17,145 nucleotides of DNA from a virus (taxonomy: Duplodnaviria > Heunggongvirae > Uroviricota > Caudoviricetes): IMG/VR virus record IMGVR_UViG_3300029843_000117; one strand, written 5' to 3'. The position numbers and the translations under genes were made by a program. The first letter of the stretch is position 1, and each line of letters opens with the position of its first letter. The notes under the pieces are model-generated. The model worked only from the letters and a program-made list of their open reading frames with translations. It ran no database searches and was not told where the DNA came from. Of the stretch, positions 179 through 17,079 are shown piece after piece.

Positions 179-192
179 AACAAAAAACCCAT
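179..192. repeat. Left copy of the 14-bp direct repeat; candidate attL core
   Basis: aacaaaaaacccat is identical to 17066-17079. It lies between the chromosomal gene stop (162) and the int stop (267). Confidence 0.6.
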
Positions 193-211
193 TTATGTAA
201 ACGGGTTAATG

Positions 212-244
212 AAAACAATAAGTTAGGTTAAAAACAATAAGTTA
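212..244. repeat. Two perfect 14-bp direct repeats (aaaacaataagtta) spaced 19 bp apart; possible Int arm-type or accessory-factor sites in the arm next to int
   Basis: Copies at 212-225 and 231-244, read directly from the sequence, located between the att core and the 3' end of int. The function is inferred only. Confidence 0.35.
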
Positions 245-266
245 AGTTGGTGGTCAGTGGTGGTTA

Positions 267-1319
267 TTACGGGGTAATGCCAACCGCTGCCGCCACTTTG
301 TCGCCACTTGGCAGCGTTGCCAGAGGATTGAAACGGAGCGCCGTTTCTAGATGATCCGGTGCCAGATGTGCGTAACGCATAGTCATTTTTATATCGTGGT
401 GTCCGAGAATTTTTTGTAAGGCCAGAATGTTTCCACCCGACATCATGAAGTGCGCCGCAAACGTATGGCGCAGAACGTGTGTGAGTTGACCGCGAGGGAG
501 CACGATAGACGTTTTTTCCATCACGGATAAAAATTGAAAATAGCAGTCTGTGAAGAAATTGAACCCATCAAGCGCCATGATCTCTTCGTAAAGCTCTTTA
601 CTGATAGGGATGCTTCTGTTTTTCTTCCCCTTCGTTCTGACAAAGGTAATTCGGTATTTGGTCACCTGTGAGCGGGTAAGATTTACGGCTTCACGCCAGC
701 GTGCGCCTGTGCTTAAGCATATCTTAACTACCAGTGCCAGAATTGGGTCCTGACGTTTGCAATCAGCCAGCAATTCAACAATCTGCTCATGGGTAAGCCA
801 TGCCATCTCTTTTTCTGCGATGGTGAATTTTCGCATGTTCTCCAGTGGGTTCGGATACGACCATTCGCCCAGACGGGATAGTTCGCTAAAAACACTACTT
901 AGATAGCTTTGCTCCAGGTTAATGGTGACCGGGCTTGCTCCTTTCTTCCATTTCTCGCTGAAGTAGATCTCGCCTGTCAGGCGTTTATCTCGATAGTGGG
1001 CAAACATTTTAGAGGTGAGATCGGTTGCAAGAGGATTGCCCAGAGCGTCAACCATCAACAGCAATTTGTCATAGACATGCTGCCCAGCTGTCAGAGATTT
1101 ACCATGTAGTTTGAACCATAGCTCAACCACGTCTTTCAGTGTTCGACGATCCACTGATTCACCCAGCCAGGGCTTTGCTTCGGTTTCTTCCATCGTGTGG
1201 CGCTCAAAAGCCAGTGCTTCGCCTTTGGTGGCGAATTGTTTACGCACACGACGCCCACTTCGTCCGGCGGGGTAACATTCGCAAAGCCATTTCCCTGTGG
1301 TTAGTTTTCGTACTGCCAT
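267..1319 (-). CDS. int: Phage integrase, tyrosine recombinase (P2/186 Int-like)
   Basis: 350-aa ORF. The C-terminal region has tyrosine-recombinase hallmarks (..LPRGQLTHVLRHTFAAHFMMSGGNILALQKILGHHDIKMTMRYAHLAP..). It sits next to the att core at the prophage edge. Confidence 0.9.
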   Translation of the reverse strand: MAVRKLTTGKWLCECYPAGRSGRRVRKQFATKGEALAFERHTMEETEAKPWLGESVDRRTLKDVVELWFKLHGKSLTAGQHVYDKLLLMVDALGNPLATDLTSKMFAHYRDKRLTGEIYFSEKWKKGASPVTINLEQSYLSSVFSELSRLGEWSYPNPLENMRKFTIAEKEMAWLTHEQIVELLADCKRQDPILALVVKICLSTGARWREAVNLTRSQVTKYRITFVRTKGKKNRSIPISKELYEEIMALDGFNFFTDCYFQFLSVMEKTSIVLPRGQLTHVLRHTFAAHFMMSGGNILALQKILGHHDIKMTMRYAHLAPDHLETALRFNPLATLPSGDKVAAAVGITP

Positions 1320-1320
1320 A

Positions 1321-1346
1321 AAAAGCCCTCATATCAGAGGGCTAAA
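1321..1346 (-). terminator. Hairpin plus U-tract on the minus strand between the cargo gene and the int start
   Basis: Minus strand reads agccctc-tgatat-gagggct followed by ttttt, immediately before the int ATG. May attenuate read-through from the upstream cargo gene and cI. Confidence 0.3.
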
Positions 1347-1401
1347 TTTAACTGTATATGTAACCAGTAATCAATGTGTGATTACTATGAAACATACATT
1401 G

Positions 1402-3078
1402 CTAAGCAACATGTAGTTCATCGTTGGCGGAAGTGGCTGCTTTGCGCTCCTGCTCAATAGCTAGAGACTCTCTATATTCTTTCGCCTCTGCAAACATTGT
1501 CCAGTGGGCGTTGATGTTCATGTCTTCAATAACTGATTTGATTTCTTTTAAATTTACGTTAAAAAACTCTTTTCGTGAGTTAATTTTATTGACCTGCTTT
1601 TCGTTGAAAACTTTATGCAGATGGTTTTCTAATGATGGTGCATCATCACTATAAATCATCGCATGAACATCGAACGAAAAAGGAACACTAGCATCTCCGA
1701 GTTCACGAACACGATCAAGTGGTTCAAGGCGGCGTGTCATTCCAATTTTATATACATCTTCGCCAAATGAACCAATATTACTAATGATATAGACGTGGCC
1801 TGATCTGGTTTGTTGAGCCATAGAAATAGCTCGTTGATTTTTAGCTTCAGCTTCTTCATATTTTAACTGTAGTTCAGCTATTTTTTGCTCTAAAGCTAAG
1901 CGTTGTTCTTCATTTGCAAGCATAAGTTCTTTCGTTGCTTTATTTATAGCTTGCTGAATAGCTTTTTCTTCTTTTTCAGCTTCTTTTATCGCTTTTTCAT
2001 ATTCTCTACGAGCTCTTTCCTCTTCACGAAGCTGTTCTTTAATCCTTCTTTGCTCTTCTTTTTCTTCGAGCATAATTTCATTAACTGCTACACCCCATTT
2101 TAGCTCGTTGAGTCTTGCCTGAAGATAGATGTCACTTATTTTTGCGGACCTAAAGGCAGAGCCATTGTAATTTACTAGTTGAAATGCATCTTTTATTTCT
2201 TGGGAAAGTTTTCCAAAATTGTTGTGTTTGACTTTTGATAAAATACTGTCAACTCTTCCATTGAAGGCATCCAAAACAAAGTTTATGGCAGTATTACGCC
2301 TGTTTTGCTCAACATAATCACACGAAGCAGCTTTATTAGTTTTTATTAATGATTTGGTTAACTCTCTGGCTTTTTGTAATTCCTTGCCTGCATCTGTAAA
2401 TTCATAATTTTCTGCCAGCTCATCAAGTACACTACGGTTAGGGATGATCCATTCATCACCATAACCTTCAATTTTATTTTTCATTGATTTTGCAACTGCT
2501 TCATATTTTTCTGCAAACTCTTTAGCTTCATATGCTGAACCAGCAATCTCCTTTGCTCTTTCTTCTGCATCAGAAATAATTTTTACTGCATTGTCATTAG
2601 CATTTGAGATTAGCTCATTTGCTTTATTATTAGCATTATCAAGACGTTCTTTGGCTTTCAGGCGTGCATCGCGAGCGTCTTTGGTGATTGCTATAGCTTC
2701 GCTATTAGCGTTGCTTATTGTCATCTGAGCTTGATAATTTGCTTCGTTTACTGTTTTAGCCGCCTTAATTTGGGCTTCATCTATTTTTTGCTTGGCTATT
2801 GAGTCCGCATTTTTTATCTTATTCTCTGCATCCATTACTGCGCTGTGCAATTCTTCGTATTGCCACAATGGTGCTGCTCGCCCTTCAAGCTCTGATAATT
2901 CTCGTACGGTCTGTGCTAGTTTTTCTTGATTTTCAATCAGTTGGTTAGAAAGGGCTATGTTGTTAGCTGTCAGGTTATCTATAGCCGCTTTGTGTTTTTT
3001 ACTTTGTTTAAATAATATTACAGCTAGAACAGGGGCGAGAAATGCTAATAAGAGTATAACGATGGCAAATGAATTCAT
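1402..3078 (-). CDS. Cargo protein: N-terminal transmembrane helix, long coiled-coil region, C-terminal T5orf172/GIY-YIG-like domain (DUF4041-type architecture)
   Basis: 558-aa ORF. N-terminus is hydrophobic (FAIVILLLAFLAPVLAVILF). The middle is K/E/A-rich with heptad-like pattern. The C-terminus reads GHVYIISNIGSFGEDVYKIGMTRRLEPLDRVRELG..., resembling the T5orf172 (GIY-YIG-like) signature. Visibly AT-rich relative to neighbours. A plausible RBS (aaggat) lies upstream, and it ends 20 bp before the cI stop. Confidence 0.8.
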   Translation of the reverse strand: MNSFAIVILLLAFLAPVLAVILFKQSKKHKAAIDNLTANNIALSNQLIENQEKLAQTVRELSELEGRAAPLWQYEELHSAVMDAENKIKNADSIAKQKIDEAQIKAAKTVNEANYQAQMTISNANSEAIAITKDARDARLKAKERLDNANNKANELISNANDNAVKIISDAEERAKEIAGSAYEAKEFAEKYEAVAKSMKNKIEGYGDEWIIPNRSVLDELAENYEFTDAGKELQKARELTKSLIKTNKAASCDYVEQNRRNTAINFVLDAFNGRVDSILSKVKHNNFGKLSQEIKDAFQLVNYNGSAFRSAKISDIYLQARLNELKWGVAVNEIMLEEKEEQRRIKEQLREEERARREYEKAIKEAEKEEKAIQQAINKATKELMLANEEQRLALEQKIAELQLKYEEAEAKNQRAISMAQQTRSGHVYIISNIGSFGEDVYKIGMTRRLEPLDRVRELGDASVPFSFDVHAMIYSDDAPSLENHLHKVFNEKQVNKINSRKEFFNVNLKEIKSVIEDMNINAHWTMFAEAKEYRESLAIEQERKAATSANDELHVA

Positions 3079-3098
3079 TTTAAAATCCTTTTACTATA

Positions 3099-3695
3099 TT
3101 AATTCGAGACTATTGTACTTCTTATACAAGCAACCACTTCAATATCAGAAAATGCACATTCAAAGCTATTCTCTGCTGTTGTAATTTTAATCATTCCTTT
3201 AGGAAGCCTTGTGATTTTTCGAATGGAATAGGTTCCGTCGATATTGATTAACCAGTTTCCATCAAGTACTTCAGAAAATTTTTGATCACAAATGTATGTG
3301 ACGAGTCCATCCTGAACAACAATTGGTGATGAAAGGTTTGCAGGAAGAAATGATGAATCGAAGACATATGAACCGTCTTCAATCATTTTGCCTGCGGCAA
3401 GGCGAAACTTAACAAGCTCTTCTGTAGCTGCTGTCAGCGAGCTTTGCTTAAGGCCTTGTCCGGTAGTTAACCATTTGAGGGAGGTTCCTGTTTCAAGAGC
3501 ACATTGGATTATCCAGTCAGCAGGAAATGTATCCCGCAAATACCTGTTCGCTAGTGTGCTTTTTGATACTTCCAAGTGATCAGCTAAAGCCTGTCGTGTC
3601 GTAAAGCCATAGGCTTCGACTAATCGCTCAATCGCAGCCTTACCACCTTTATTGGGATTTATTTTGATCTCACTTGGGTACTTTGATGTTGACAT
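3099..3695 (-). CDS. cI: Phage 186 CI-like immunity repressor (N-terminal HTH, C-terminal oligomerisation domain)
   Basis: 198-aa ORF with an HTH-like N-terminus (GFTTRQALADHLEVSKSTLANRYL). Size and position (divergent from apl/cII, upstream of int) match 186 cI. Confidence 0.7.
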   Translation of the reverse strand: MSTSKYPSEIKINPNKGGKAAIERLVEAYGFTTRQALADHLEVSKSTLANRYLRDTFPADWIIQCALETGTSLKWLTTGQGLKQSSLTAATEELVKFRLAAGKMIEDGSYVFDSSFLPANLSSPIVVQDGLVTYICDQKFSEVLDGNWLINIDGTYSIRKITRLPKGMIKITTAENSFECAFSDIEVVACIRSTIVSN

Positions 3696-3717
3696 ATCTC
3701 TTTTGCGATCCTAGTAT
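3689..3717 (+). promoter_or_regulatory. Candidate sigma70 lytic promoter (pR-like): TTGACA, 17 bp spacer, TAGTAT
   Basis: -35 ttgaca at 3689-3694 (overlapping the cI start codon on the opposite strand) and -10 tagtat at 3712-3717, oriented toward apl/cII. Confidence 0.4.
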
Positions 3718-3724
3718 CAGTTTT

Positions 3725-3740
3725 GTACCCAATTGGGTAC
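3725..3740. promoter_or_regulatory. Perfect 16-bp palindrome GTACCCAATTGGGTAC; candidate repressor operator
   Basis: Lies immediately downstream of the putative pR -10. A half-site-like ttgggtac recurs at 3674-3681. Confidence 0.45.
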
Positions 3741-3790
3741 TTGTCACGATTACTACAGGCTCACCACAAGCCAATAGGAGATGTTGCATC

Positions 3791-4012
3791 ATGACCCCTA
3801 ACATTTCAATAACTCTGAATACGCCACACGTCACAATCGAGCGTTATAGCGAACTTACTGGTCTTTCAATCGACACAATCAACGATATGTTGGCGGATGG
3901 TCGCATTCCTCGGCATCGTCTTCGTAAAGACAAGAAAAGAGAAAAGGTAATGATCAACCTTGCTGCTCTTACCGTTGATGCACTTACTGATTGCAATGTT
4001 GTATTCAACTAG
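3791..4012 (+). CDS. apl: Apl/Cox-like excisionase and transcriptional regulator
   Basis: 73-aa ORF from an internal ATG, with RBS aggag at 3776-3780. It is the first gene of the rightward operon opposite cI. The ORF-track start at 3674 would overlap cI and is unlikely. Confidence 0.6.
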
Positions 4013-4044
4013 TTCCATTTTGGGATACATCAGAGGTGTCGACC

Positions 4045-4554
4045 ATGTTTGATTACCAAGTTTCCAAACATCCACATTTTGATGAAGCCTGTCGTGCATT
4101 CGCACTGCGCCACAATCTGGTGCAACTGGCAGAACGTGCGGGCATGAATGTGCAGATTCTGCGGAACAAGCTGAACCCAGCTCAACCTCATTTATTAACC
4201 GCACCAGAAATCTGGCTGCTTACCGATCTGACTGAAGATTCAACGTTGGTAGATGGTTTTCTGGCACAGATTCATTGTCTGCCATGTGTACCGATTAATG
4301 AGGTAGCAAAAGAGAAACTGCCGCATTACGTCATGAGCGCAACTGCAGAGATCGGGCGTGTTGCAGCAGGTGCGGTATCTGGTGATGTAAAAACTAGTGC
4401 CGGTCGTCGTGATGCTATCAGCAGCATTAACTCTGTAACACGACTGATGGCTCTGGCTGCTGTTTCATTGCAAGCCCGTTTACAGGCTAATCCTGCGATG
4501 GCGAGTGCAGTTGATACCATGACTGGCCTTGGTGCTTCATTCGGTTTGCTGTGA
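4045..4554 (+). CDS. cII: CII-like lysogeny establishment regulator
   Basis: 169-aa ORF starting [24 protein letters not shown], with RBS agaggtg at 4031-4037. Size and position match 186 CII. Confidence 0.6.
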
Positions 4555-4561
4555 GGTGTTT

Positions 4562-4858
4562 ATGCTGACGAAAGAACCATCATTTGCATCGCTGCTGGTA
4601 AAACAAAGCCCGGCAATGCACTACGGTCACGGCTGGATCACGGGTGAGGATGGAAAACGCTGGCATCCATGTCATTCACAAGATGAATTGCTGTCTGAAT
4701 TGACCACGAGGAAACGGAGAAAGTCCAAATGTATGCGGCAGAAAGTGAAGTGGTTTATCAGTTTCGTTACAGAGGGGAGAGTTATTCAGTACCTGAAGGT
4801 GATTTGCTCTGTTGCTATCCGTCATTGTCGGGCGATGGCAGTTACTTTTTCACGTTAA
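4562..4858 (+). CDS. Hypothetical early protein (3' extent uncertain)
   Basis: ATG with RBS gaggtg at 4553-4558. The N-terminal part looks protein-like, but the last ~40 codons overlap the next ORF and look like out-of-frame read-through. Confidence 0.35.
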   Translation: MLTKEPSFASLLVKQSPAMHYGHGWITGEDGKRWHPCHSQDELLSELTTRKRRKSKCMRQKVKWFISFVTEGRVIQYLKVICSVAIRHCRAMAVTFSR

Positions 4859-4953
4859 AGGATGGGACGTTTTTACGGGGAGAGCAGGTTAAAGAGACGA
4901 TACGAAAAAATGTATCTCCTCTTGAGCGTTACCGTAAGAACAAAGAACGATAG
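4729..4953 (+). CDS. Hypothetical early protein
   Basis: 74-aa ORF, RBS ggag about 10 nt upstream, balanced composition. Overlaps the previous ORF by 130 nt. Confidence 0.45.
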   Translation: MYAAESEVVYQFRYRGESYSVPEGDLLCCYPSLSGDGSYFFTLKDGTFLRGEQVKETIRKNVSPLERYRKNKER

Positions 4954-4975
4954 CTGCGTTTGGGGGATATGAAGT

Positions 4976-5317
4976 ATGGCAATTAATGGCGCTGCAGCAA
5001 CTGTTCCATTAAGCCCCGGTGAACGCCTGAATGGACTTAATCACATTGCGGAGTTAAGGGCGAAAGTTTTTGGCCTGAATATTGAGTCAGAGCTTGAGCG
5101 GTTTATTAAAGATATGCGTGATCCACGGGATATCAATAATGAACAAAATAAACGGGCACTGGCTGCCATATTCTTTATGGCAAAAATTCCAGCTGAACGT
5201 CATAGCATCAGCATTAATGAGCTGACCACTGACGAAAAGCGGGAGCTGATTAAAGCAATGAATCATTTTCGTGCAGTGGTGAGCTTATTTCCCAGACGGC
5301 TAACCATGCCGAATTAA
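4976..5317 (+). CDS. Hypothetical early protein
   Basis: 113-aa ORF with RBS ggggga 8 nt upstream, in the same orientation as the early operon. Confidence 0.55.
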   Translation: MAINGAAATVPLSPGERLNGLNHIAELRAKVFGLNIESELERFIKDMRDPRDINNEQNKRALAAIFFMAKIPAERHSISINELTTDEKRELIKAMNHFRAVVSLFPRRLTMPN

Positions 5318-5384
5318 CCAACTAATGAAATTAATGGCGTAAACCCGCCGGGCATCCCTTTATCTAAATTCAGGAGAATTGATT

Positions 5385-5618
5385 ATGCGTAATATTGAAA
5401 CCCTCACGACTAAAACCGGACCGGATGACGCAGGGCTTAATATTTTACTGACAGAGGCTCGTCTGGAAGAACGCCGGGCAAGGGCTGAAGCAATGGCTGC
5501 TCGCCTTGATAGCCTGGCGTGTCATATCTCATCCCGCCAGCTAAACCACGTGGAAGCGGCAGAACTGCTGCGCGTGACTGCTGAAGCAATCCAGAACGAA
5601 GCGCAGGAGATCCACTAA
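5385..5618 (+). CDS. Hypothetical early protein
   Basis: 77-aa ORF from ATG at 5385, with RBS caggag at 5371-5376. Its stop overlaps the next start (ATAATG). Confidence 0.55.
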   Translation: MRNIETLTTKTGPDDAGLNILLTEARLEERRARAEAMAARLDSLACHISSRQLNHVEAAELLRVTAEAIQNEAQEIH

Positions 5619-5845
5619 TGGCTGATGCAATGGATCTCGTACAGCAGCGCGTTGAAGAAGAACGCCAGCGCCATATCCGTGCAGCCCGTGCCAAATCACC
5701 GGGCGTGTCACGCGTACTTTGCATTGAATGTGAAGCGCCAATTCCGCCAGCACGACGCCGCGCCATTCCGGGAGTGCAGCTTTGCATTACCTGTCAGGAA
5801 ATCGCAGAACTGAAAGGCAAACATTACAACGGAGGTGCTGTATGA
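5618..5845 (+). CDS. TraR/DksA-family C4-type zinc-finger protein
   Basis: 75 aa with CIECEAP..(17)..CITCQ, a CxxC-N17-CxxC arrangement typical of phage and plasmid TraR-like proteins. Translationally coupled to its neighbours. Confidence 0.75.
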   Translation: MADAMDLVQQRVEEERQRHIRAARAKSPGVSRVLCIECEAPIPPARRRAIPGVQLCITCQEIAELKGKHYNGGAV

Positions 5846-6699
5846 GCACCATCCTGAAATGGGCGGGAAATAAAACCGCCATTATGCCAGAACTGAAAAA
5901 ATACCTTCCTGCTGGCCCGCGACTGGTTGAACCTTTCGCGGGTTCCTGTGCTGTGATGATGGAAACGGATTATCCCAGCTATCTGGTTGCGGATATTAAT
6001 CCTGATTTAATCAACCTCTATAAAAAGGTTGCCGCTGATTGTGAATCGTTTATATCTCGCGCCAGAGTTTTATTTGAGATCGCAAACAGGGAGGTGGCTT
6101 ATTACAACATAAGGCAGGAGTTTAACTGCTCAACTGAAATTACTGATTTCATGAAAGCGGTATATTTCCTGTATCTCAATCGTCACGGTTACCGTGGTTT
6201 ATGTCGCTATAACAAGAGCGGGCATTTCAACATTCCCTACGGTAATTATAAAAATCCGTATTTCCCTGAAAAAGAACTTCGCACATTTGCAGAAAAAGCC
6301 CAGCGAGCAACGTTTATCTGCGCCAGCTTTGATGAAACGCTGGCGATGTTGAAGGCGGGAGATGTGGTGTATTGCGATCCGCCATATGACGGTACGTTTT
6401 CCGGCTATCACACTGATGGTTTCACTGAAGATGACCAGTATCACCTGGCATCCGTTCTTGAACATCGGTCATCAGAAGGACATCCGGTCATTGTTTCTAA
6501 CAGTGACACATCCCTGATCCGTTCGCTGTATCGCAATTTTACTCACCACTATATCAAGGTAAAACGCAGCATCGGTGTGGCAGCTGGCGAGGGTAAATCA
6601 GCAACAGAAATCATTGCTGTTTCCGGGCCGCGCTGCTGGATGGGATTTGATTATTCGCGTGGCGTGGATAGTTCTGCCGTGTACGGAGTACGTGCATGA
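5842..6699 (+). CDS. dam: DNA adenine methyltransferase (Dam-like, N6-adenine)
   Basis: 285 aa from ATG 5842, with RBS ggaggtg at 5831-5837. Contains the SAM-binding motif ILKWAGNK near the N-terminus and the catalytic DPPY motif ([10 protein letters not shown]). Confidence 0.85.
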
Positions 6700-9136
6700 G
6701 TCATGCCGATATGAACAACTGCTGCGGCTTTAACGAGGCTGCCGCAGCATTCTCATGGAACAGCCCGAAAAAGGCCATTAACCCTTATCTGGACCCGGCG
6801 GAAGTTGCGCCGGTTTCTACGCTTTCAAACCTGATCACTCTGTACGCTGCCGATAACGAGCAGGAACAGTTGCGCCGCGAGGCACTGAGTGATCAGGTCT
6901 GGGAGCGTTATTTCTTTAATGAATCACGTGATCCTGTCCAGCGCGAAATGGAGCAGGATAAGCTCATTAGCCGGGCAAAGCTGGCGCATGAGCAGCAGCG
7001 TTTTAATTCAGACATGGTCATTCTGGCGGACGTCAACGCCCAGCCTTCCCATATCAGCAAGCCGCTGATGCAACGTATTGAATACTTCAGCAGCCTGGGC
7101 AGGCCAAAGGCTTATTCCCGCTATTTACGTGAGACGATTAAGCCATGTCTGGAACGACTGGAGCATGTACGCGACAGTCAGCTATCTGCATCTTTTCGCT
7201 TTATGGCAAGCCATGAAGGGCTGGACGGCCTGCTGATCCTGCCTGAAATGAGTCAGGATCAGGTGAAACGCCTGTCCACCTTGGTAGCTGCGCATATGAG
7301 TATGTGCCTTGATGCAGCTTGTGGTGATTTGTATGCCACCGATGACGTTAAGCCAGAAGAAATCCGCAAGACATGGGAAAAGGTGGCAGCGGAAACCCTG
7401 CGTCTGGATGTCATCCCACCTGCGTTTGAGCAACTCCGTCGGAAAAGAAACCGCCGTAAACCCGTGCCGTATGAACTCATTCCGGGTTCGCTGGCGCGTA
7501 TGTTGTGCGCCGACTGGTGGTATCGGAAATTATGGAAGATGCGTTGCGAATGGCGGGAAGAGCAGTTGCGCGCTGTTTGCCTGGTCAGCAAAAAAGCATC
7601 TCCTTATGTCAGCTATGAAGCCGTGATGCATAAACGTGAGCAGCGCCGTAAGTCGCTGGAGTTTTTCCGTTCTCATGAACTGGTGAACGAAGACGGCGAC
7701 ACGCTGGACATGGAGGATGTGGTAAACGCCAGCAGCAGCAACCCTGCGCATCGCCGCAATGAGATGATGGCCTGTGTTAAAGGTCTGGAGCTTATCGCGG
7801 AAATGCGCGGTGACTGCGCCGTTTTCTACACTATCACCTGTCCGTCGCGTTTCCATTCCACGCTAAATAACGGCAGACCAAACCCGACCTGGACAAACGC
7901 GACGGTAAGACAAAGCAGCGATTATCTGGTCGGCATGTTTGCTGCATTTCGTAAGGCGATGCACAAAGCCGGGTTGCGCTGGTATGGCGTGCGGGTGGCT
8001 GAGCCGCATCATGATGGCACAGTTCACTGGCACCTGTTGTGTTTCATGCGCAAAAAAGACCGCCGTGCCATCACTGCATTACTGCGTAAGTTTGCCATCC
8101 GTGAAGACCGCGAGGAGCTGGGCAATAACACTGGGCCGCGCTTTAAGTCTGAGTTGATTAACCCGCGCAAAGGAACGCCGACAAGCTACATCGCGAAATA
8201 TATCAGTAAGAACATTGACGGTCGTGGTCTGGCTGGCGAGATCAGCAAGGAAACGGGTAAATCTCTGCGTGATAACGCTGAATACGTGAATGCCTGGGCG
8301 TCTCTGCATCGTGTTCAGCAATTCCGCTTCTTTGGTATTCCGGGGCGTCAGGCTTACCGTGAACTTCGCTTGCTGGCTGGTCAGGCGGCAAGGCAACAGG
8401 GTGACAAAAAAGCAGGTGCGCCGGTACTGGATAACCCGCGTCTTGATGCCATTCTGGCTGCTGCTGATGCTGGTTGTTTTGCCACCTACATCATGAAGCA
8501 GGGCGGCGTACTGGTTCCCCGTAAATATCACCTCATCAGAACCGCTTATGAAATCAACGAAGAGCCGACCGCCTATGGCGATCACGGCATTCGTATTTAT
8601 GGCATCTGGTCACCCATTGCAGAGGGCAAGATCTGCACTCATGCAGTGAAGTGGAAAATGGTTCGTAAAGCCGTTGACGTTCAGGAGGCGGCAGCCGACC
8701 AGGGCGCTTGCGCCCCTTGGACTCGTGGCAATAACTGTCCCCTTGGACTCGTGGCAATAACTGTCCCCTTGCTGAAAATTTGTACCAACAAGGGAAAGAC
8801 AAATCAGCTGATGGGGATACCAGAACGGATATCACCCGCATGGATGACAAGGAATTGCACGATTACCTGCACAGTATGAACAAAAAAGAGCGTCGGGAAC
8901 TGGCTGCAAGGTTACGCCTGGTGAAACCGAAACGGCGTAGAGACTACAAACAGCGAATTACAGATCATCAGCGACAGCAGCTCGTCTATGAACTGAAGTC
9001 CAGAGGATTTGATGGCAGCGAGAAAGAGGTCGATTTACTCCTTCGCGGCGGCAGCATTCCGTCAGGAGCAGGCCTGCGTATTTTCTATCGGAACCAGCGT
9101 TTGCAGGAAGATGATAAGTGGCGGAACCTGTATTAA
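6696..9136 (+). pseudogene. A: Replication initiation endonuclease A (P2 gpA-like, HUH rolling-circle initiator), frameshifted by a 26-bp tandem duplication
   Basis: The frame-0 ORF 6696-8879 (727 aa) carries the HUH-like motif TVHWHLLCF and the tyrosine motif YIAKYISK. Downstream, ORF 8780-9136 in frame 2 continues the protein exactly if one 26-bp repeat copy (8739-8764) is removed, which would give a continuous ORF of about 804 aa. Confidence 0.75.
8713..8771. repeat. Tandem direct repeat: 26-mer ccccttggactcgtggcaataactgt, two full copies plus a partial 7 bp
   Basis: 8713-8738 and 8739-8764 are identical base for base, and 8765-8771 repeats the first 7 bp. 26 is not a multiple of 3, so the duplication shifts the A reading frame. 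Confidence 0.9.
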
Positions 9137-9248: not shown

Positions 9249-9289
9249 GTTATGCATACAGTATTGCTTGTGGTGTCATAGGAGGAAAG

Positions 9290-9478: not shown

Positions 9479-9488
9479 GGTGACTTTT

Positions 9489-9722: not shown

Positions 9723-9752
9723 GAAACGTTGCCCCCAAGAGGATTCATTCTG

Positions 9753-9923
9753 ATGGGGGACTATTTTGGGCAACGAGTGAAACGAGGCGTTAGGTGGACG
9801 GCCATTTTGATAAGTGATCGTCCGCTTTTTGTTCTGAGTTCAAGCGATGGATTTAACACACTGGTTGAAGCAGAAGTATCTAAGTTCAATTTATATTATT
9901 TGAAGGGCACTGGTCTGATGTAG
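9753..9923 (+). CDS. Small hypothetical ORF
   Basis: 56 aa from an internal ATG with RBS aagagga at 9737-9743. No recognisable motif. Confidence 0.25.
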   Translation: MGDYFGQRVKRGVRWTAILISDRPLFVLSSSDGFNTLVEAEVSKFNLYYLKGTGLM

Positions 9924-10009
9924 TACGATTTTTGCCGGAGATGGCATGTTCTATATTGATCTCATCCATATAATGATTGGTATTATTAGCTTAGTTTAAA
10001 GAGGATTGA

Positions 10010-11587
10010 ATGGATATCAACTATGTTGTTTCAAAAATGGGGTTCGTAGATGATCTTATTAATGCAGGTTCATTTGATTCTGCCTATAAAAATGTAAAGG
10101 ATATTCTTAACGGTATCGATGAGATAAATACAATCAAAGAAAATAGAATAATTATATTATCTAATTTGGCCGGAAATCTTATTGATATCGGAAGTTTTAG
10201 TAATGTAAAAAATATAGCGGAGGAAGGCTTAAATATCTTTATAAACAATAAAAATGAATTTCTGACTATAATGAAAGAATCCTTATATTACTATAACTTG
10301 GCAAATGGAATGAGCGCAGTTCTTGATTTTAATCCTAATGACAATGCAGATATTGATAGTTTCATTAAGCTGAATGATGTAAAAAATAATTACTGGAAAG
10401 CGTTTAAACTTTCACAAGAAGATGGATGGGTGCCCCCTGATTTAATAGTTAATCTAGCTAATGTATTAAAAAAACAATATCGTATATCTGAATCAATGGA
10501 TTATTATGAACAAGCAATATCTATTGATAACTCAATTCCTCAGGCGTGGGTAAACAGATCTGAGGCATTAGAATTGCTTAATGAATTATCTACAACATAT
10601 ACATATAAAATGATTAAAGAAGTTATTCGAGGTTATGAGTGTGCAATAAAGTCAGGGAAATGTTTTCCTTCATGGAAGGTTGCTCTTCAAAGAAAAATAA
10701 AGTACAACGAAAGTATATTGAGTGAATCATGTGTATATGGCATAGAGGATATAAGTACAGATGAAAGGCTCACGCAGGAGGAGTATGATACTTTATCAAA
10801 CTACCAGAGGTTTTGTATAGATAATAATCTAATGTTGTCTGATCATTCGCTATATTGCAATTGTTATGCGTCATCTAAAGATAATATAACTATTGCTACC
10901 ACCGAGGAAGGTGTGTTTGGTGATTTTATAGTGCCAATGGAAATGGTGTTAAATAGACTTAAAGCTGAGTATTCCTTAGCACGAAAAATGTTTTTTGAAT
11001 ATAAGGTTGATAGTGAGTTTTTTGATGAGGATTCGGAGGTATGTTATTCTGAATTGTATAATGGAGAAATATTGTATGAAAATGTTGAGAAGTTAAGGGT
11101 TGCATTTAGAGCTTGCTTTGGTATCTTGGATAAAATAGCAGTTGCTCTGTGTCAATTATTTGATTTAAAACCAGATAGAGGACATATATACTTTCATAAC
11201 TTCTGGCGGATTAGTGATGAAAAAAGAAAGCTTAAAATAAACAAAATAAATAATAAAGGATTGCTGGGTTTGTTTAGTATTGCTATGGATTTGAATGATA
11301 AAAATGGTGAGCTTGCTTTTTTTAAAGAATGGAGGAATGATTTAGAACATAAACTGTTAGTTATTCACGAGAAAGACATGTTAGTTGATTTATATAATTC
11401 TTATGGGTTTTTTGATGAGGTGAGGTTTATTGAGAAAGAAAAGTTTGAGAAACAGCTCTTACAACTCATGAAAATTGTGAGATCAGCCGTTATTCTTTTT
11501 GTGTTTACCATACGTATAGAGGGGAAAAAAAGTATTCCTAAAGATATGTTGACCATTAAAAATACCATCGAGAGAAAAGTATTGTAG
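10010..11587 (+). CDS. Cargo protein with TPR-like N-terminal region and C-terminal HEPN-like domain (Rx4H motif); candidate abortive-infection or defence RNase
   Basis: 525-aa ORF, strongly AT-rich. RBS gagg at 10001-10004. TPR-like segment SMDYYEQAISIDNSIPQAWVNRSEALELLNE. C-terminal FFKEWRNDLEHKLLVIHEKD contains R-x4-H, the HEPN signature. A perfect -10 TATAAT lies at 9969-9974. Confidence 0.8.
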   Translation: MDINYVVSKMGFVDDLINAGSFDSAYKNVKDILNGIDEINTIKENRIIILSNLAGNLIDIGSFSNVKNIAEEGLNIFINNKNEFLTIMKESLYYYNLANGMSAVLDFNPNDNADIDSFIKLNDVKNNYWKAFKLSQEDGWVPPDLIVNLANVLKKQYRISESMDYYEQAISIDNSIPQAWVNRSEALELLNELSTTYTYKMIKEVIRGYECAIKSGKCFPSWKVALQRKIKYNESILSESCVYGIEDISTDERLTQEEYDTLSNYQRFCIDNNLMLSDHSLYCNCYASSKDNITIATTEEGVFGDFIVPMEMVLNRLKAEYSLARKMFFEYKVDSEFFDEDSEVCYSELYNGEILYENVEKLRVAFRACFGILDKIAVALCQLFDLKPDRGHIYFHNFWRISDEKRKLKINKINNKGLLGLFSIAMDLNDKNGELAFFKEWRNDLEHKLLVIHEKDMLVDLYNSYGFFDEVRFIEKEKFEKQLLQLMKIVRSAVILFVFTIRIEGKKSIPKDMLTIKNTIERKVL

Positions 11588-11909: not shown

Positions 11910-11928
11910 GGCGTGGCGGGGATACGAG
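11910..11928. other. Candidate cos site (cohesive-end sequence) of the P2/186 type
   Basis: ggcgtggcggggatacgag begins with GGCGTGGCGGGGA, matching my recollection of the 186/P2 19-nt cohesive end (GGCG[A/T]GGCGGGGAAAGCA.). The location between the accessory region and the 3' end of Q matches the P2 map. Confidence 0.5.
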
Positions 11929-12133: not shown

Positions 12134-12430
12134 ATGAAAACTACTTATAGCTATGATTTTCAATATATGCGCAAAGGTCAGGATCGCCCTGATGATGATG
12201 GAGAGGTTGTAGGGTGTAATTCAGAAGACAACTCGCTTTTGATGCTTCCAAATGTGGGAGACTACGTAACAATTACGAATAAGGGTGGGCGTGCTCAATT
12301 TGATGGGCGGGTGAAAACAAGGCTTTTCAATTACCTACGCATTGCTGATGGTCATGTTCATTGCTCCATTTGCATTGTAGTTGAGGAAGTTGATATGGAC
12401 TCCGTATGGGGGGCACTAATTAAAGAATAA
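12134..12430 (+). CDS. Hypothetical 98-aa protein between cos and Q
   Basis: ORF with a weak RBS and no recognisable motif (contains HCSIC). It occupies a space that is short and non-coding in P2 as I recall it. Confidence 0.4.
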   Translation: MKTTYSYDFQYMRKGQDRPDDDGEVVGCNSEDNSLLMLPNVGDYVTITNKGGRAQFDGRVKTRLFNYLRIADGHVHCSICIVVEEVDMDSVWGALIKE

Positions 12431-12460
12431 TAGAATGCCTGCAAATGCAGGCGCTTTAAT

Positions 12461-13501
12461 TTACTCAGAAATATCTAAGTTGTAAGATTCAAAGCAAATC
12501 ACTTTTTCACCTAGCCAGTTGTTCAGCTCTTGCAGCCGCTTTTGCAGTGGCATCAGTTCATTGCGGACAAACACTCGACTAGCCTTCTCCACATCCCCAA
12601 ACCCCCCGACATTATTAGGCATTATCCCCATCATTTGTGGCGGCACACGATGCGCCGCCATCATGTCGTCCCGGCTCACGTTCTTGATATTCAGGAACTC
12701 ATCCTTCGCCGCCACTTCTGACAACGGGATAATCTGAAGCCCGTCCTTTTTACCGTTAGGCGAGTACATAAACAGGTTACGGAAGTTACCAGGACCTTTG
12801 GCGCTTTTCATCGCATTGCGGAGGTTGTTCACATCCTCCTGGTTCTGCGCAGCATCGGTCATGTACATGATGAAGCCTGCATGACTGCCGTTAATGTAAT
12901 ACTTGCGGCGGAACAGCGTGGCGGACTCGTTGAGCAGAGCTGACGGAATGGCAGAAAGATAACCGGGCAGGCCGTAGATCTCCTGGTTAATGTCCGGTTC
13001 CATTAGATGAAAAATGCTGCCTTTCGTGAACTGATACGGCTGGGTTGTCATACCGTATTGCACAAACCAGTAGGTATCCAGGTCTAACCCGCGTCGGGTG
13101 TATTTTGCCAGTGCAGGCTCAAGGGCGATAACTTCACCGAAGCGGTTCGTGCGTTTCTCCAGGTAGGCGTTACCAAAAACCAGATAGTCCTGCACAAAAC
13201 GCGAAAAAGCCTGCTGGCTGAGCAGCGGGTGAGGGATGTAGGTGCTGGTCAGAATGTTGCACTTCACTGCAATCGGTGAGCTGTGATGCACGGCGGCGCG
13301 GAAGGTTCGCGCCAGTCCGTCGAAACTCACAGGCGGCTCATACCAACGATCCATCTGTACGCATTCCACATAGTCCAGCAGTTCGCGGCGGTCCAGAACA
13401 GGAACGGGATCACCGAAGCTGAATGCTTCGGCTGAAGTCTGGCTTTTATGCTGGATCTGTTTCGTCGACGCAGCGCGGTTCTTCTTACTCTTTCCCATCA
13501 A
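12461..13501 (-). CDS. Q: Portal vertex protein (P2 gpQ-like)
   Basis: 346 aa (P2 Q is about 344 aa as recalled). Leftward orientation and a 4-bp overlap with the upstream terminase gene match the P2 QP operon. Confidence 0.85.
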   Translation of the reverse strand: MMGKSKKNRAASTKQIQHKSQTSAEAFSFGDPVPVLDRRELLDYVECVQMDRWYEPPVSFDGLARTFRAAVHHSSPIAVKCNILTSTYIPHPLLSQQAFSRFVQDYLVFGNAYLEKRTNRFGEVIALEPALAKYTRRGLDLDTYWFVQYGMTTQPYQFTKGSIFHLMEPDINQEIYGLPGYLSAIPSALLNESATLFRRKYYINGSHAGFIMYMTDAAQNQEDVNNLRNAMKSAKGPGNFRNLFMYSPNGKKDGLQIIPLSEVAAKDEFLNIKNVSRDDMMAAHRVPPQMMGIMPNNVGGFGDVEKASRVFVRNELMPLQKRLQELNNWLGEKVICFESYNLDISE

Positions 13502-15264
13502 AAAATCTCCACAATATTGCTGGTATTGGCGGACTCGCCCTGCAGCGGTTCGTTAAACAGTGCGTGCATTGTTGCCCAGGCCAGATCGGCATGGCTGGCT
13601 TCTTCGCTGCGGCTGGCTTCATAGGTCGGGCGGTTGCCACTGGCAGTGGTAGCGCGACGGATTGCCATAAATGACTGCGCAATGTCGGTGTGCCCGGCGT
13701 CAAACTCCAGACGGCGGTGGCTGATAATGTCGTAGGCCTTGAGTACCAGGGCGTTTTTAACGTTGGGGTTGTAGACAAACTCCCTGACGGCAGGAAAAAA
13801 CGCTTTCACGTTCTCGTAAACCCCGTGACCGACGCCGGTCGAGTCGATGCCGATATAGGTCACGTTGTACTGTTCGGTCAGTTTTTTGATGGCGTCAGCC
13901 TGGGCGCGGAAGTCCATCCCGCGCCACTGGTGACGCTCAAGAATGCGGAACTTACCACCCGGCACGGCTGGCGGAGCCACCACCACGCATCCGGCACTAT
14001 CGCCGTTCTGCGTACCTTTTGCCGGGTCATAACCGATCCACACCTCGCGCCAGCCAAACGGGCGCAGCGCCAGTGCATGAAAGTCGGTCCAGACTTCCCA
14101 GCTGTCCACCATGCACGCCTGCAGCTCGCTGAGCGGAAACACGGACGCGAGATCGTCCACAAACTCGCACATCAGCAGGTTCTGGTATTCGTCCGGGCTG
14201 TACTCCATGCGCAACTGGTCAAGGTCGAACAGGTTACAGCCGCCGCGCACCGCATCTTCCACGGTGACTATCTGGCGGTATTGCCCGTCTGCGCACAGCA
14301 GGCCGGGGGCCAGATTGCTGTGGGACAGGTCGATGTCCACCTTATCGGCTTTGTTGCGCCCACGGTTGAACAGCGCACCGGACCAGAACGGATAAGCACT
14401 GTGTGTCAGACTGGATGGCGTGGAAAAATAGGTTTGTCGCCATTTTTTGTGAATAGCCATACCGGAAGCCACTTTGCGCAGCTCCTGGAATTTCGGTATC
14501 CAGAAATATTCATCCAGATACAGGTTGCCGTGGTAACTCTGGGCCGTGCGGGCATTGGTGCCGAGGAAGTAAAGCGTGGCCCCGTTAGGAAGCACCATCG
14601 GATCGCCTTTCAGCTCCACCTCCACTTCTTTGGCAAAGTCGATGATGTACTGTTTAAAGACGTGAGCCTGAGCCTTGCTGGCAGAAAGGAAAATCTGGTT
14701 ACGCCCGGTCAGCAGGGCGTCAATCAGGGCTTCACGGGCAAAGTAAAAGGTCGCGCCGATCTGGCGAGACTTCAGCAGGTTGCGGATGCGATTGGTTTTT
14801 CCGGCTTCCCACCAGTGGCGCTGGTAGTTGAACATGGAGGAATGGAAGATTTCTTCCAGCTTCTCAATCTGTTCATCGGTGAAAACATTCTTTTCCGGCT
14901 GACGGCGCGGGCCTTTGTTGCGGTTGGCGACGTTAGGGTTTAAGTCGGCTTCGTTGCCGCCATTGTTAAACTTGCCGATGCGCGCGTGGCGCTCCGACTG
15001 GCGCGCCAGCAGGTCAATCTCTTTGAAATCTTTCCCTTCTTTGTGCTCCTTCATAATGAGCTGGCAGTAGCGTGCGGCGGTGGTGAGCTGCATCTGATCC
15101 AGCGGCCCATAGTCACCCCACTTGTCGCGTTTTTTCCAGCTATGAACGGTTGCAACTTTCTCGCCCAGCATTTCAGCAATGCGGGCGACGCGGTATCCCT
15201 GAAAGTACAGCAGCATGGCCTGCCGACGGGGATCGAGATCTGCGGGTGTCAGTGTGGTGTTCAT
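13498..15264 (-). CDS. P: Terminase large (ATPase) subunit (P2 gpP-like)
   Basis: 588 aa (P2 P is about 590 aa as recalled). Divergent from O across a 142-bp intergenic region, as in P2. Confidence 0.85.
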   Translation of the reverse strand: MNTTLTPADLDPRRQAMLLYFQGYRVARIAEMLGEKVATVHSWKKRDKWGDYGPLDQMQLTTAARYCQLIMKEHKEGKDFKEIDLLARQSERHARIGKFNNGGNEADLNPNVANRNKGPRRQPEKNVFTDEQIEKLEEIFHSSMFNYQRHWWEAGKTNRIRNLLKSRQIGATFYFAREALIDALLTGRNQIFLSASKAQAHVFKQYIIDFAKEVEVELKGDPMVLPNGATLYFLGTNARTAQSYHGNLYLDEYFWIPKFQELRKVASGMAIHKKWRQTYFSTPSSLTHSAYPFWSGALFNRGRNKADKVDIDLSHSNLAPGLLCADGQYRQIVTVEDAVRGGCNLFDLDQLRMEYSPDEYQNLLMCEFVDDLASVFPLSELQACMVDSWEVWTDFHALALRPFGWREVWIGYDPAKGTQNGDSAGCVVVAPPAVPGGKFRILERHQWRGMDFRAQADAIKKLTEQYNVTYIGIDSTGVGHGVYENVKAFFPAVREFVYNPNVKNALVLKAYDIISHRRLEFDAGHTDIAQSFMAIRRATTASGNRPTYEASRSEEASHADLAWATMHALFNEPLQGESANTSNIVEIF

Positions 15265-15328: not shown

Positions 15329-15406
15329 AATACCGCGCATTGTTTCACTGCCCCCATCACCGCAACCATAAGGCTCCAGTAAGTTTTTTCTAACGGAGCA
15401 CGGCTC

Positions 15407-16174
15407 ATGACAGTGAAAGCAAAGCGTTTTCGCATCGGGGTGGAAGGTGCCACCACCGATGGACGCGAAATCCAGCGTGAATGGCTGGAACAGATGGCAG
15501 CCAGCTACAACCCGGCGGTGTATACCGCGCTGATTAACCTTGAGCACATCAAGTCTTATCTGCCGGACAGCACCTTTAACCGCTACGGCAAGGTGACGGC
15601 GCTGTTTGCTGAAGAAATTACGGAAGGTCCGCTGGCAGGCAAGATGGCATTGTATGCCGACGTTGAGCCAACGGAGTCCCTGGTGGAACTGGTGAAAAAA
15701 GGCCAGAAATTATTCACCTCTATGGAAGTCAGCCCGAAGTTTGCTGATACGGGCAAAGCCTACCTGGTCGGCCTGGCTGCCACTGATGATCCAGCCAGTC
15801 TGGGTACGGAAATGCTGACATTCAGCGCCAGTGCAGCCCATAACCCGCTGGCAAACCGCAAGCAGAATCCTGCCAATCTCTTTACCGCTGCAGAGGAAAC
15901 GGTGATCGAACTGGAAGAAGTCCAGGATGACAAACCGTCCCTGTTTGCCCGCGTCACGGCGTTGTTTACCAAAAAAGAGCAGTCCGATGACGCCCGGTTC
16001 GCTGATGTGCATAAGGCCGTGGAGCTGGTCGCCACTGAGCAGCAGAACCTGAGCGCACGCACCGAAAAATCCCTGTCTGAGCAGGAAGAACGCCTGTCTG
16101 AACTGGAGACTGCTCTGCAGGAGCAGCAATCTGTTATTCATCCGGCAGGGGCAGGGCAAAAGCGCCACTGGTAA
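15407..16174 (+). CDS. O: Capsid scaffolding protein (P2 gpO-like), probably 3'-truncated
   Basis: 255 aa. The N-terminus MTVKAKRFRIGVEGATTDGR resembles P2 gpO (..KFFRIGVEGDTCDGR as recalled). P2 gpO is about 284 aa, and this ORF ends abruptly (..HPAGAGQKRHW*) just before a D-like fragment. Confidence 0.7.
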   Translation: MTVKAKRFRIGVEGATTDGREIQREWLEQMAASYNPAVYTALINLEHIKSYLPDSTFNRYGKVTALFAEEITEGPLAGKMALYADVEPTESLVELVKKGQKLFTSMEVSPKFADTGKAYLVGLAATDDPASLGTEMLTFSASAAHNPLANRKQNPANLFTAAEETVIELEEVQDDKPSLFARVTALFTKKEQSDDARFADVHKAVELVATEQQNLSARTEKSLSEQEERLSELETALQEQQSVIHPAGAGQKRHW

Positions 16175-16184
16175 ACCACTGCCG

Positions 16185-16679
16185 GTGATCACTATCACAC
16201 GGAAGGACGGCGACAGTCACCGCTTTACCCTGGCAGATCGCGGAGCCTACACGGGCGTAATTGCCAGCTGGTTGCATACCCGCGAACCCGCGAAGAAAGA
16301 AAGCACCACGGTGAAGCGTAAGCGCAGGACTAAGAAGCAGAAGAAAGAGCCGGAAGCGAAGCAGGGCGATTACCTGGTGGGGACGGATGAAAACGTGCTG
16401 GTACTTAATCGCACTTATGCCAACCGGAGCAACGCCGAACGAGCGGCGAAAATGCAGTGGGAACGCCTGCAACGCGGTGTTGCGTCATTCTCGCTACAAC
16501 TGGCGGAAGGTCGGGCAGATCTCTACACGGATATGCCTGTGAAGGTCAGTGGCTTTAAACAGCCGATAGATGATGCGGAATGGACCATTACCACCCTGAC
16601 ACATACTGTCAGCCCGGATAATGGTTTTACGACCAGTCTGGAGCTTGAAGTGAGGATTGATGATTTCGAAATGGAATGA
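16185..16679 (+). pseudogene. D: C-terminal fragment of tail protein D (P2 gpD / late control D family)
   Basis: 164-aa ORF immediately upstream of ogr, as D is in P2. It has no proper start context (GTG at 16185, upstream frame open but unrelated). Several kb of structural genes expected between O and D are absent. Confidence 0.55.
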
Positions 16680-16769
16680 TTCTTCGCAATGGAGAACTTT
16701 TAAGTTTGCAAAATGGAATAATGCGGTATCATTATTGTGAATTTAGCAAAAATGGGGAGAACTCGAAAA

Positions 16770-16988
16770 ATGATGATTTGCCCACTGTGTGGAAGTGCCG
16801 CCCATACTCGCAGCAGTTTTCAGGTATCTTCATTGACCAAAGAGCGTTACAACCAGTGCCAGAACATTAACTGCAGCCATACTTTTGTTACCCATGAAAC
16901 TTTTGTTCGTTCGATTGCAACGCCAAAAGAGTCAAATCCGGTTCAGCCGCATCCAATGAAATCAGGACAGGTGGCGCTCTCTCTTTGA
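16770..16988 (+). CDS. ogr: Late gene transcriptional activator Ogr (zinc-finger)
   Basis: 72 aa from ATG 16770, with RBS ggggaga at 16754-16760. MMICPLCGSAAHTRSS..KERYNQCQNINCSHTF..PHPMKSGQ resembles P2 Ogr (MFHCPLCQHAAHARTS..KERYHQCQNVNCSATF..PHPLPSGQ as recalled). Confidence 0.85.
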   Translation: MMICPLCGSAAHTRSSFQVSSLTKERYNQCQNINCSHTFVTHETFVRSIATPKESNPVQPHPMKSGQVALSL

Positions 16989-17065
16989 CTCTGCCGCCAT
17001 TTTGTCGCCATCGTTAAAAAACAGTGTTTCTAACATCATGATTTTAAACAGCTTAAATTTCAGGC

Positions 17066-17079
17066 AACAAAAAACCCAT
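17066..17079. repeat. Right copy of the 14-bp direct repeat; candidate attR core
   Basis: aacaaaaaacccat is identical to 179-192 and overlaps the 3' terminator of the sRNA at 17069-17145. Confidence 0.6.

Follow-up and report, generated by a model that had tools for sequence, protein, structure and literature searches.

Why does a prophage that has lost most of its late genes still carry two intact accessory genes, an immunity switch and an integrase? The locus that raises this question is a 17,145-nucleotide stretch of Caudoviricetes DNA (IMG/VR record IMGVR_UViG_3300029843_000117), which we analysed at its full length and call the window. Positions 179-17079 are a 16.9-kb prophage of the 186/P2-like group (Peduoviridae) in an Escherichia coli chromosome. 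The original prediction took this element for a domesticated remnant, disabled in replication and morphogenesis and maintained for its two cargo genes and its immunity. We find that it is, with high probability, a recent deletion derivative of an SOS-inducible 186/P2-like prophage, its cargo intact through youth. It bears two lesions: a deletion running from O to D, and a 26-bp duplication of the origin core within gene A. We conclude that the cargo is intact because the element is young, and not demonstrably through selection on the cargo; the step most plausibly favoured by selection is the loss of the lethal late genes.

The lesions and the cargo genes are arranged as follows.

15407-16174, plus strand: O', the scaffold/protease gene cut after codon ~239 and continued by 16 out-of-frame codons
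16122-16129: deletion junction, joining O nucleotide ~723 to D nucleotide ~548 at the microhomology GCAA
16126-16679, plus strand: 'D, the 3' 554 nucleotides of tail gene D, a pseudogene fragment (Pfam Phage_GPD, positions 185-302 of 305)
6696-9136, plus strand: gene A, an HUH rolling-circle nickase, frameshifted by +2 (open reading frames 6696-8879 and 8780-9136)
8713-8738 and 8739-8764, plus strand: two copies of a perfect 26-bp tandem duplication, CCCCTTGGACTCGTGGCAATAACTGT, the nick-site core of the origin
1402-3078, minus strand: cargo 1, SNIPE/PD-lambda-1, within the cI-int lysogenic operon
10010-11587, plus strand: cargo 2, a 525-residue protein with putative TPR and an LA2681-type HEPN domain, in the tum-cos interval (the equivalent of the tin/old hotspot)

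The larger lesion removes most of the late region. O sequence extends as far as 16125-16129 and D sequence begins at 16126, with the four nucleotides GCAA common to both; past the junction O' runs on through 'D sequence in the wrong frame until a stop at 16174. Lost with the deletion are N, M, L and X, every tail gene and the lysis genes, a stretch of 17.5 kb against the KP12 prophage and 19.5 kb against that of strain 2014C-3075, so the predicted O-to-D deletion is borne out, with its junction at GCAA and ~17.5-19.5 kb lost. Judged from the sequence on either side, the junction marks this loss as illegitimate recombination at a 4-nt microhomology. Because everything between O nucleotide ~723 and D nucleotide ~548 is gone, the element is a defective derivative of a P2/186-like prophage and not a functional member of the group: the window no longer holds a complete complement of capsid, lysis and tail genes (N, M, L, X, Y, K, R, S, V-G, FI-U, D).

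We took population counts over 5,426 complete E. coli genomes, one of which, GPT21-003_1 (NZ_OY754834.1), has the same junction. Its positions 19086-19170 correspond to window 16086-16165, with the same O723/D548 junction and no gaps over 3.65 kb. Compared with the window, the GPT21-003_1 prophage is without SNIPE and has another CI and another cargo 2, and its A (8841-11255) is broken by an internal inversion of ~609 bp, so that A can also be lost in a separate way. Up to 2-3 nt from the junction the two elements have different O alleles, both of which occur in intact phages, and the differences between the elements fall mostly at third codon positions, even in 'D. The shared junction may have been inherited, its flanks having been replaced by recombination that resolved where the homology ends; alternatively, deletions may recur at this site. 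The GPT21-003_1 prophage also has an additional, incomplete copy of the terminase gene between Q and P (15790-16497).

Three ideas about the deletion were set aside. Left ends seem to cluster in the 3' end of O (O nucleotides 723, 723, ~785 and 802), but we make no claim of clustering, because this sample is biased by the query and further end-points occur in ogr-proximal DNA, in N and between P and O. Inspection by eye for an invertase (gix/hix-like) site or a pseudo-origin at the end-points gave only a weak likeness (TGGCAAT..CTGT in D). The truncated O' as a dominant-negative scaffold was rejected as a general explanation, since O is intact in the sister remnant UMNF18 and absent from CPE35.

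The second lesion lies in A, which is 2412-2415 nt long in relatives. In the window the predicted frameshift is confirmed: the perfect 26-bp tandem duplication breaks the reading frame, splitting A into a 727-residue open reading frame (6696-8879) and an orphan C-terminal one of ~120 residues (8780-9136), the latter matching phrog_91, 'nicking at origin of replication'. The duplicated unit aligns to the rep_origin annotations of P2 and 186 (NC_001895, NC_001317), and the annotated P2 nick nucleotide, 29892, aligns to window position 8719, the last base of CCCCTTG. The wild-type order is CCCCTTG, GACTCGTGGCAATAACTGT, CCCCTTG and CTG, the heptamer recurring 26 nt downstream; in the window it recurs once more, at 8765-8771. 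As to the prediction that replication is disabled, the frameshift stands, and the loss of replication would follow from it; the HUH (HWH) and YxxKY motifs of A both lie upstream of the frameshift and are kept in the truncated protein. Two PHROGs families, phrog_23581 (118 of 118 positions) and phrog_14885, equal the orphan fragment 8780-9136; split A genes have thus been annotated as separate proteins frequently enough to make up families of their own.

The same duplication is present in eight of the 5,426 genomes. In S88, M8 and PEB20-37-A the prophage around it is otherwise complete within the extent of the 40-kb loci, and the S88 prophage sits at a different attachment (att) site; the flanking haplotypes indicate that the duplication arose independently at least twice. 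None of 50,697 phage records contains it, which is what lethality to the phage would lead one to expect.

Apart from these two lesions every gene of the element is intact, including Q, P, dam and fil, which are useless to a remnant. The description of a degraded prophage that kept its cargo is sound. The original prediction proposed to compare the ratio of nonsynonymous to synonymous substitution rates (dN/dS) between cargo and backbone genes. Computed by the Nei-Gojobori method against eleven relatives, this ratio is 0.05 for SNIPE and 0.12 for the HEPN gene (on six differences only), 0.005 for P and 0.03 for Q (range over Q and P, 0.005-0.04). In the dead fragments it is 0.04 for O', 0.04-0.08 for 'D and 0.10-0.15 for the out-of-frame 3' part of A. 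The comparison is uninformative, the dead fragments being as constrained as the cargo; their low ratios imply that the divergence predates the lesions and was inherited from functional phages.

The age of the element can be read from its left arm. Positions 1-8814 show zero substitutions relative to the CPE35 prophage, in which A is intact, and at most 10 relative to three other prophages. This identity to an A+ prophage points to a very young element, in which differential decay could not yet show, and intact reading frames are therefore the default expectation. Purifying selection on kept genes with decay elsewhere is not what we observe. Nor is the element fixed in place, since int, apl and both att cores are intact, as is cos. 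The lesion in A is a tandem repeat, which could revert, and it is found in otherwise complete prophages too. As to vertical persistence, the exact element was seen in two sequencing runs only, and its junction in one of the 5,426 genomes.

Defective relatives give this element its context. We searched the complete genomes with a synthetic join of P to the start of O and 'D to attR, the parts lying within 2.5 kb of each other; such queries preferentially pick up remnants in which Q, P, the start of O and the left arm survive, with the pieces within 2.5-9 kb. At least 44 genomes have large late-region deletions that keep the P-Q end, in at least 10 structural classes. The seven remnants inspected at this locus (GPT21-003_1, MB7671, PSJ-16, UMNF18, CPE35, OHT76-1 and W5-6) all keep the arm from int to P. 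Their deletions include O785/D342 in MB7671, O802/D793 in PSJ-16, N'/'U in UMNF18, P-O intergenic region/'T in CPE35 and multiple small deletions in OHT76-1; A is intact in MB7671, PSJ-16 and CPE35. At least 27 genomes, of human, pig, cattle, dog and river-water origin, share a second P/O-'T class. We inspected one member in detail, W5-6 (NZ_CP032992.1), and the other 26 are taken as near-identical by their span of 5538 and bit score. W5-6 has, at the same locus, a ~15.4-kb remnant in which the DNA from the P/O intergenic region to within T is deleted; this remnant has an intact A, CI, SOS module, U, D and ogr, and a TIGR02391/Ymh-HEPN gene in its hotspot. Remnant sizes range from ~15.5 to 22.8 kb, which is what remains of the left arm. 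On these genomes, defective derivatives that keep the early arm with its hotspot are common and able to persist; this is no proof of selection, and clonal hitch-hiking would fit it too.

These remnants do not look frozen. The left arms of the window and the CPE35 prophage are identical, yet the cargo-2/Q/P module differs, with 49 synonymous-site differences in P, and so does the deletion; conversely, one junction is found with different cargo and immunity in the window and GPT21-003_1. Near-identical arms with different modules and deletions, and one junction with different contents, point to ongoing recombination, in which defective elements keep swapping modules rather than stay frozen. Defence homologues have been noted in defective elements, with domestication versus continued swapping left open (Nucleic Acids Research 2026, gkag898), and our data bear on that choice between frozen islands and continued exchange. 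Two INPHARED records among the relatives look mislabelled. ON470620.1 is a chromosomal segment whose host genes take up ~8 kb to one side of the prophage and ~5 kb to the other, and its prophage is truncated within the tail-fibre gene H. OM835953.1 (KP12 clone 3) is classed as Vequintavirinae, yet its sequence is P2-like.

How else might the locus be explained? A MEGAHIT contig of human-gut metagenome run ERR912130 matches the window at 100% identity, and Logan contigs break precisely at the duplication, as they might if the junction and the duplication were chimeras or collapse errors of a metagenome contig. We reject this explanation, whose probability is negligible, because the lesions recur in finished chromosomes, two runs and two assemblers. 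The O'/'D junction is in one finished chromosome and the duplication in eight, where PGAP annotates A as frameshifted, and a second run, ERR16029784, yields a contig 100% identical over 8.4 kb that spans the junction and reaches host genes. It is also very improbable that the element is a helper-dependent mobilisable mini-phage, about half a P2 genome in size, of which a co-infecting P2-like helper would package a dimer. Such a life would suit the retention of cos, int, apl, att, ogr, late promoters, Q and P, the size of 16.9 kb against 33-34 kb for relatives, and the intact A of the sister remnants MB7671, PSJ-16 and CPE35. P2 A acts in cis, however, and with A here both frameshifted and cis-acting a helper could not replicate the element. 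P4-type hijacking genes are missing, and no P4 core gene (alpha primase, sid, psu, delta, ash/alpA) is among the window's open reading frames of at least 90 residues with annotated counterparts in relatives. An exact-pattern scan found the O'/'D junction in neither IMG/VR nor JGI metagenome contigs, and its confinement to one chromosomal locus in one of the 5,426 genomes gives no hint of horizontal spread. We also rejected the idea that half-genome size is an adaptation to dimer packaging, for remnant sizes do not cluster beyond left-arm length and are simply left-arm leftovers.

Domestication, with selection keeping the defence cargo and the immunity, has more to recommend it, but on balance we doubt it. 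All seven inspected remnants keep the int-to-P arm with both hotspots, although our searches favour remnants that keep the left arm, and "always kept" is partly ascertainment. The P/O-'T class, in at least 27 genomes from diverse hosts, keeps its hotspot gene, for which clonal hitch-hiking accounts equally well. SNIPE is an intact 1677-nt coding sequence in all eight relatives that carry it, and the exact element occurs in two independent sequencing runs; the same possibility has been raised as an open question (Nucleic Acids Research 2026, gkag898). Against this, decay does not differ between genes, with Q, P, dam, fil and ogr as intact as the cargo; dead-fragment dN/dS (0.04-0.15) equals or exceeds that of SNIPE; the left arm is the same as in a prophage with intact A; excision is still possible with int, apl and the att cores intact; and the potentially toxic fil and the gene in the dhr position have been kept. 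The idea of a maintained remnant thus holds for degradation and retention of the cargo, whereas selection for cargo or immunity is unsupported by dN/dS, by the equal intactness of other genes and by the youth of the element.

The preferred reading, a recent deletion derivative with its cargo intact through youth, has points against it as well. The GPT21-003_1 junction on other flanks hints that the deletion is older than the left arm implies, or that the site is a deletion hotspot. Truncated A may retain activity, with both motifs upstream of the frameshift. The role of either cargo gene in this host is a predicted one, and for the HEPN_LA2681 protein no experimental validation in defence was found in the literature searched.

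How did the origin core come to be duplicated? We tentatively suggest that the A frameshift may be a recurrent lesion inflicted by the phage's own HUH initiator, which grounds the prophage and could act as a reversible off-switch; we regard this as possible rather than probable. The initiator, gpA, would nick after CCCCTTG at the origin and, after 26 nt of synthesis, mis-terminate at the second heptamer and religate. The origin core would then be doubled inside A, the frame lost and the prophage grounded. If replication then began at one of the tandem origins and ended at the other, one copy could be removed exactly, which would make the lesion reversible. In favour of this suggestion stand the alignment of the P2 nick nucleotide to the end of the heptamer, the presence of the duplication on at least two unrelated haplotypes in otherwise complete prophages, and a recombination patch next to the duplicated origin. 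Polymerase slippage between the heptamers would explain the structure of the duplication just as well and is an equal candidate. Simple slippage would be expected to yield the reciprocal 26-bp deletion too, and a 40-nt junction probe for that deletion had no match in the 5,426 genomes. HUH mis-termination would also predict directionality and possible self-reversion. If the suggestion is true, duplication of the nick-site core is a specific route to lost autonomy in P2-type prophages.

The origin also appears to be a mosaic or recombination boundary. A 440-bp patch (8815-9256) has 13 substitutions relative to CPE35, inside 9.7 kb that are otherwise identical, and begins ~50 nt 3' of the duplication; in three other near-identical prophages divergence likewise starts at ~8783.

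By homology, both cargo genes are defence genes, SNIPE being of a validated type and cargo 2 a predicted one. Their GC content is low, at 35-39% between 1500 and 3250 and 29-33% between 10000 and 11750, where the backbone has 45-58%, in agreement with their earlier description as AT-rich. Cargo 1 matches PADLOC PD-Lambda-1 (E=2e-120) and, in Pfam, DUF4041, T5orf172 and MUG113, with a C-terminal T5orf172/GIY-YIG nuclease; a hydrophobic helix at residues 4-23, FAIVILLLAFLAPVLAVILF, was read from the translation. It thus has what defines SNIPE: DUF4041, the nuclease, the profile match and, read by eye, an N-terminal transmembrane anchor. PD-lambda-1 was first found by Vassallo et al. (2022; PMC9519451) and later renamed SNIPE; anchored in the membrane, this nuclease cleaves the DNA of siphoviruses at injection and provides direct, non-abortive defence (bioRxiv 10.1101/2025.11.03.685801). 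As it lies between cI and int on the same strand, SNIPE is probably part of the lysogenic transcript, co-transcribed with both. The interval from int to gpA (integrase-primase) is a minor P2 hotspot, with 8% of P2 defence systems (Nucleic Acids Research 2026, gkag898; PMC13586616).

Cargo 2 matches Pfam HEPN_LA2681 (E=1.8e-38) over residues 309-504 and has an RNDLEH motif in its translation. Pfam matches to N-terminal TPR are sub-threshold and the match to the PADLOC TPR model is weak (E=3.5e-4); PADLOC has no system model for this gene. LA2681-type HEPN is listed as "fused to TPR" (Anantharaman et al., 2013; PMC3710099). The gene occurs in 11 complete E. coli genomes at 99.5-100%, and its product probably acts as an abortive-infection RNase.

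The element is bounded by a 14-bp direct repeat.

1-162, plus strand: 3' end of rcdA (ybjK), the left host flank; an open reading frame, and the same flank is annotated rcdA in relatives
179-192: attL core, AACAAAAAACCCAT, a direct repeat with 17066-17079
17066-17079: attR core, the 14-bp repeat AACAAAAAACCCAT, followed by the host's native terminator hairpin

The boundaries first proposed, 179-17079, match these repeats exactly, and the flanks, the 3' end of rcdA on the left and the ybjL side on the right, match annotated genomes. Of the complete genomes, 1,123 have the rcdA-int junction of attL and 1,110 the ogr-ybjL junction of attR, so that rcdA|ybjL, filled in ~21% of them, is among the commonest P2-type integration sites. 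A tRNA scan found none at the att site. Integration has split the native terminator hairpin of rcdA, now at attR (17070-17125), from its gene; a phage-supplied terminator-like hairpin (186-207), which overlaps the attL core, replaces it.

The remaining features are those of a 186/P2-like prophage.

267-1319, minus strand: tyrosine integrase, 350 residues, intact (Pfam Int_N and Phage_integrase)
1324-1343: terminator-like hairpin after cargo 1
3099-3695, minus strand: 186-type CI immunity repressor, intact (Pfam Phage_CI_repr and Phage_CI_C)
3689-3717, plus strand: pR-like early lytic promoter, TTGACA-17-TAGTAT, a consensus match only, at the position of 186 pR
3791-4012, plus strand: apl/cox, from the annotation of a 99.3%-identical locus
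4045-4554, plus strand: cII (Pfam Phage_CP76), from the annotation of a 99.3%-identical locus
4562-4858, plus strand: fil, intact
4976-5317, plus strand: DUF5347 gene, intact
5385-5618, plus strand: DUF2732 gene, intact
5618-5845, plus strand: zinc-finger gene, intact
5842-6699, plus strand: dam, intact
9231-9246, plus strand: perfect LexA box, CTGTAAATATAAACAG, 5' of the SOS module; the sole zero-mismatch match in the window
9290-9478, plus strand: orf62, SOS module
9489-9722, plus strand: DinI-like protein, SOS module (Pfam DinI)
11910-11928, plus strand: cos cohesive-end site, GGCGTGGCGGGGATACGAG, a pattern match aligned to the P2 right end/cosR and the 186 end
12134-12430, plus strand: orf98, a small gene in the cos-Q slot (phrog_12676, of unknown function, E=5e-52)
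12436-12453: bidirectional terminator after orf98
12461-13498, minus strand: portal gene Q, intact (Pfam Phage_portal)
13498-15264, minus strand: large terminase gene P, intact (Pfam Terminase_6N/6C)
16770-16988, plus strand: ogr, zinc-finger late-gene activator, intact (Pfam Ogr_Delta), identical in six relatives

All open reading frames of at least 90 residues that match annotated genes in relatives are P2/186 homologues or cargo. The element has an integrase beside att with the core at both ends, a 186-type CI/Apl(Cox)/CII switch, a P2-type cos by Q, ogr, and an HUH initiator A, frameshifted, with an internal origin. The expectation that int, cI, apl, cII, the LexA-box/orf62/DinI-like module and both cargo genes would be intact proved correct, all having the lengths seen in relatives, as do the likewise intact fil, dam, Q, P and ogr. 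The integrase gene differs by 0-1 substitutions from those of four relatives; CI is 32% identical to 186 CI and identical to the CI of four relatives. The LexA box, analogous in position to the LexA site of 186 p95, links the downstream module to the SOS response. The DinI-like protein is 41% identical to residues 71-145 of 186 Tum (its C-terminal half), and orf62 gave no match when compared with the N-terminal half; the module would act as an anti-repressor. The 98-residue product of orf98 has no Pfam, PADLOC or NCBIfam match. Its slot, between cos and Q, holds Ymh-HEPN, PIN or other genes in relatives, and from this variation we conclude that cos splits the hotspot into two independently variable slots.

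Together these parts suggest how the element would behave. In the lysogen, SNIPE, co-transcribed with cI, would cut incoming siphovirus DNA at the membrane, the HEPN protein would serve as an abortive-infection RNase, and CI would confer immunity to homoimmune phages. SOS induction would derepress pR and permit excision. The excised circle would give no replication, A being cis-acting and truncated, no particles and no lysis.

The closest known systems are the 186/P2 prophages at rcdA|ybjL (ON470620, KP12 OM835953, 2014C-3075), with a backbone at 95-99.6% nucleotide identity. The element and its 186/P2-like relatives have in common the order int-cI-apl-cII-fil-...-dam-A-tum-hotspot-cos-Q-P/O...D-ogr, a 186-type CI, the LexA-controlled DinI/Tum module and the origin inside A. 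Unlike these relatives, the element is without N through U and parts of O and D, has A frameshifted and carries SNIPE between cI and int. Like the type SNIPE, cargo 1 has a transmembrane helix at its N terminus, DUF4041 and a C-terminal GIY-YIG/T5orf172 nuclease. It differs from the PADLOC profile in being, at 558 residues, ~60 longer, with its first ~105 residues outside the profile, which matches the variable N-terminal region of SNIPE (bioRxiv 10.1101/2025.11.03.685801). Cargo 2 resembles the LA2681-type HEPN family in its Pfam domain, its Rx4H motif and, putatively, a TPR fusion of the kind tabulated (PMC3710099), and lies in the cos-proximal gpA-gpQ hotspot of P2 defence genes (Rousset et al., 2022, PMC9122126; PMC9519451; gkag898). 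In P2 hotspots AT-rich cargo swaps freely between near-identical backbones, as it does here; the carrier here is defective.

The duplication in A has a parallel in rolling-circle replicons. Michel and Ehrlich are said to have described, in 1986, nick-site-mediated illegitimate recombination in such replicons (M13, pC194). As in those cases, the end point of the rearrangement is the initiator nick site with a nearby pseudo-site; unlike them, it is a 26-bp duplication within the initiator's own gene.

As a whole the element belongs with grounded or cryptic prophages, in which, as Bobay and colleagues reportedly found in 2014, lytic genes are lost while regulators and accessory genes are kept. 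Such prophages have been described elsewhere (Ramisetty & Sudhakari, 2019; PMC6379469), and the P2 remnant of E. coli K-12 (ogrK-yegZ) is an example, its lytic and morphogenetic genes deleted and regulators and accessory genes kept. A defective P2-like prophage with anti-phage genes in known hotspots is a kind already well described; the instance is new, and as a further example of a described situation it changes little. Only two points are worth following: the duplicated origin core and the exchange of modules between defective elements. Unlike the K-12 remnant, this one is far younger and larger, and keeps both att sites, int and the full switch.

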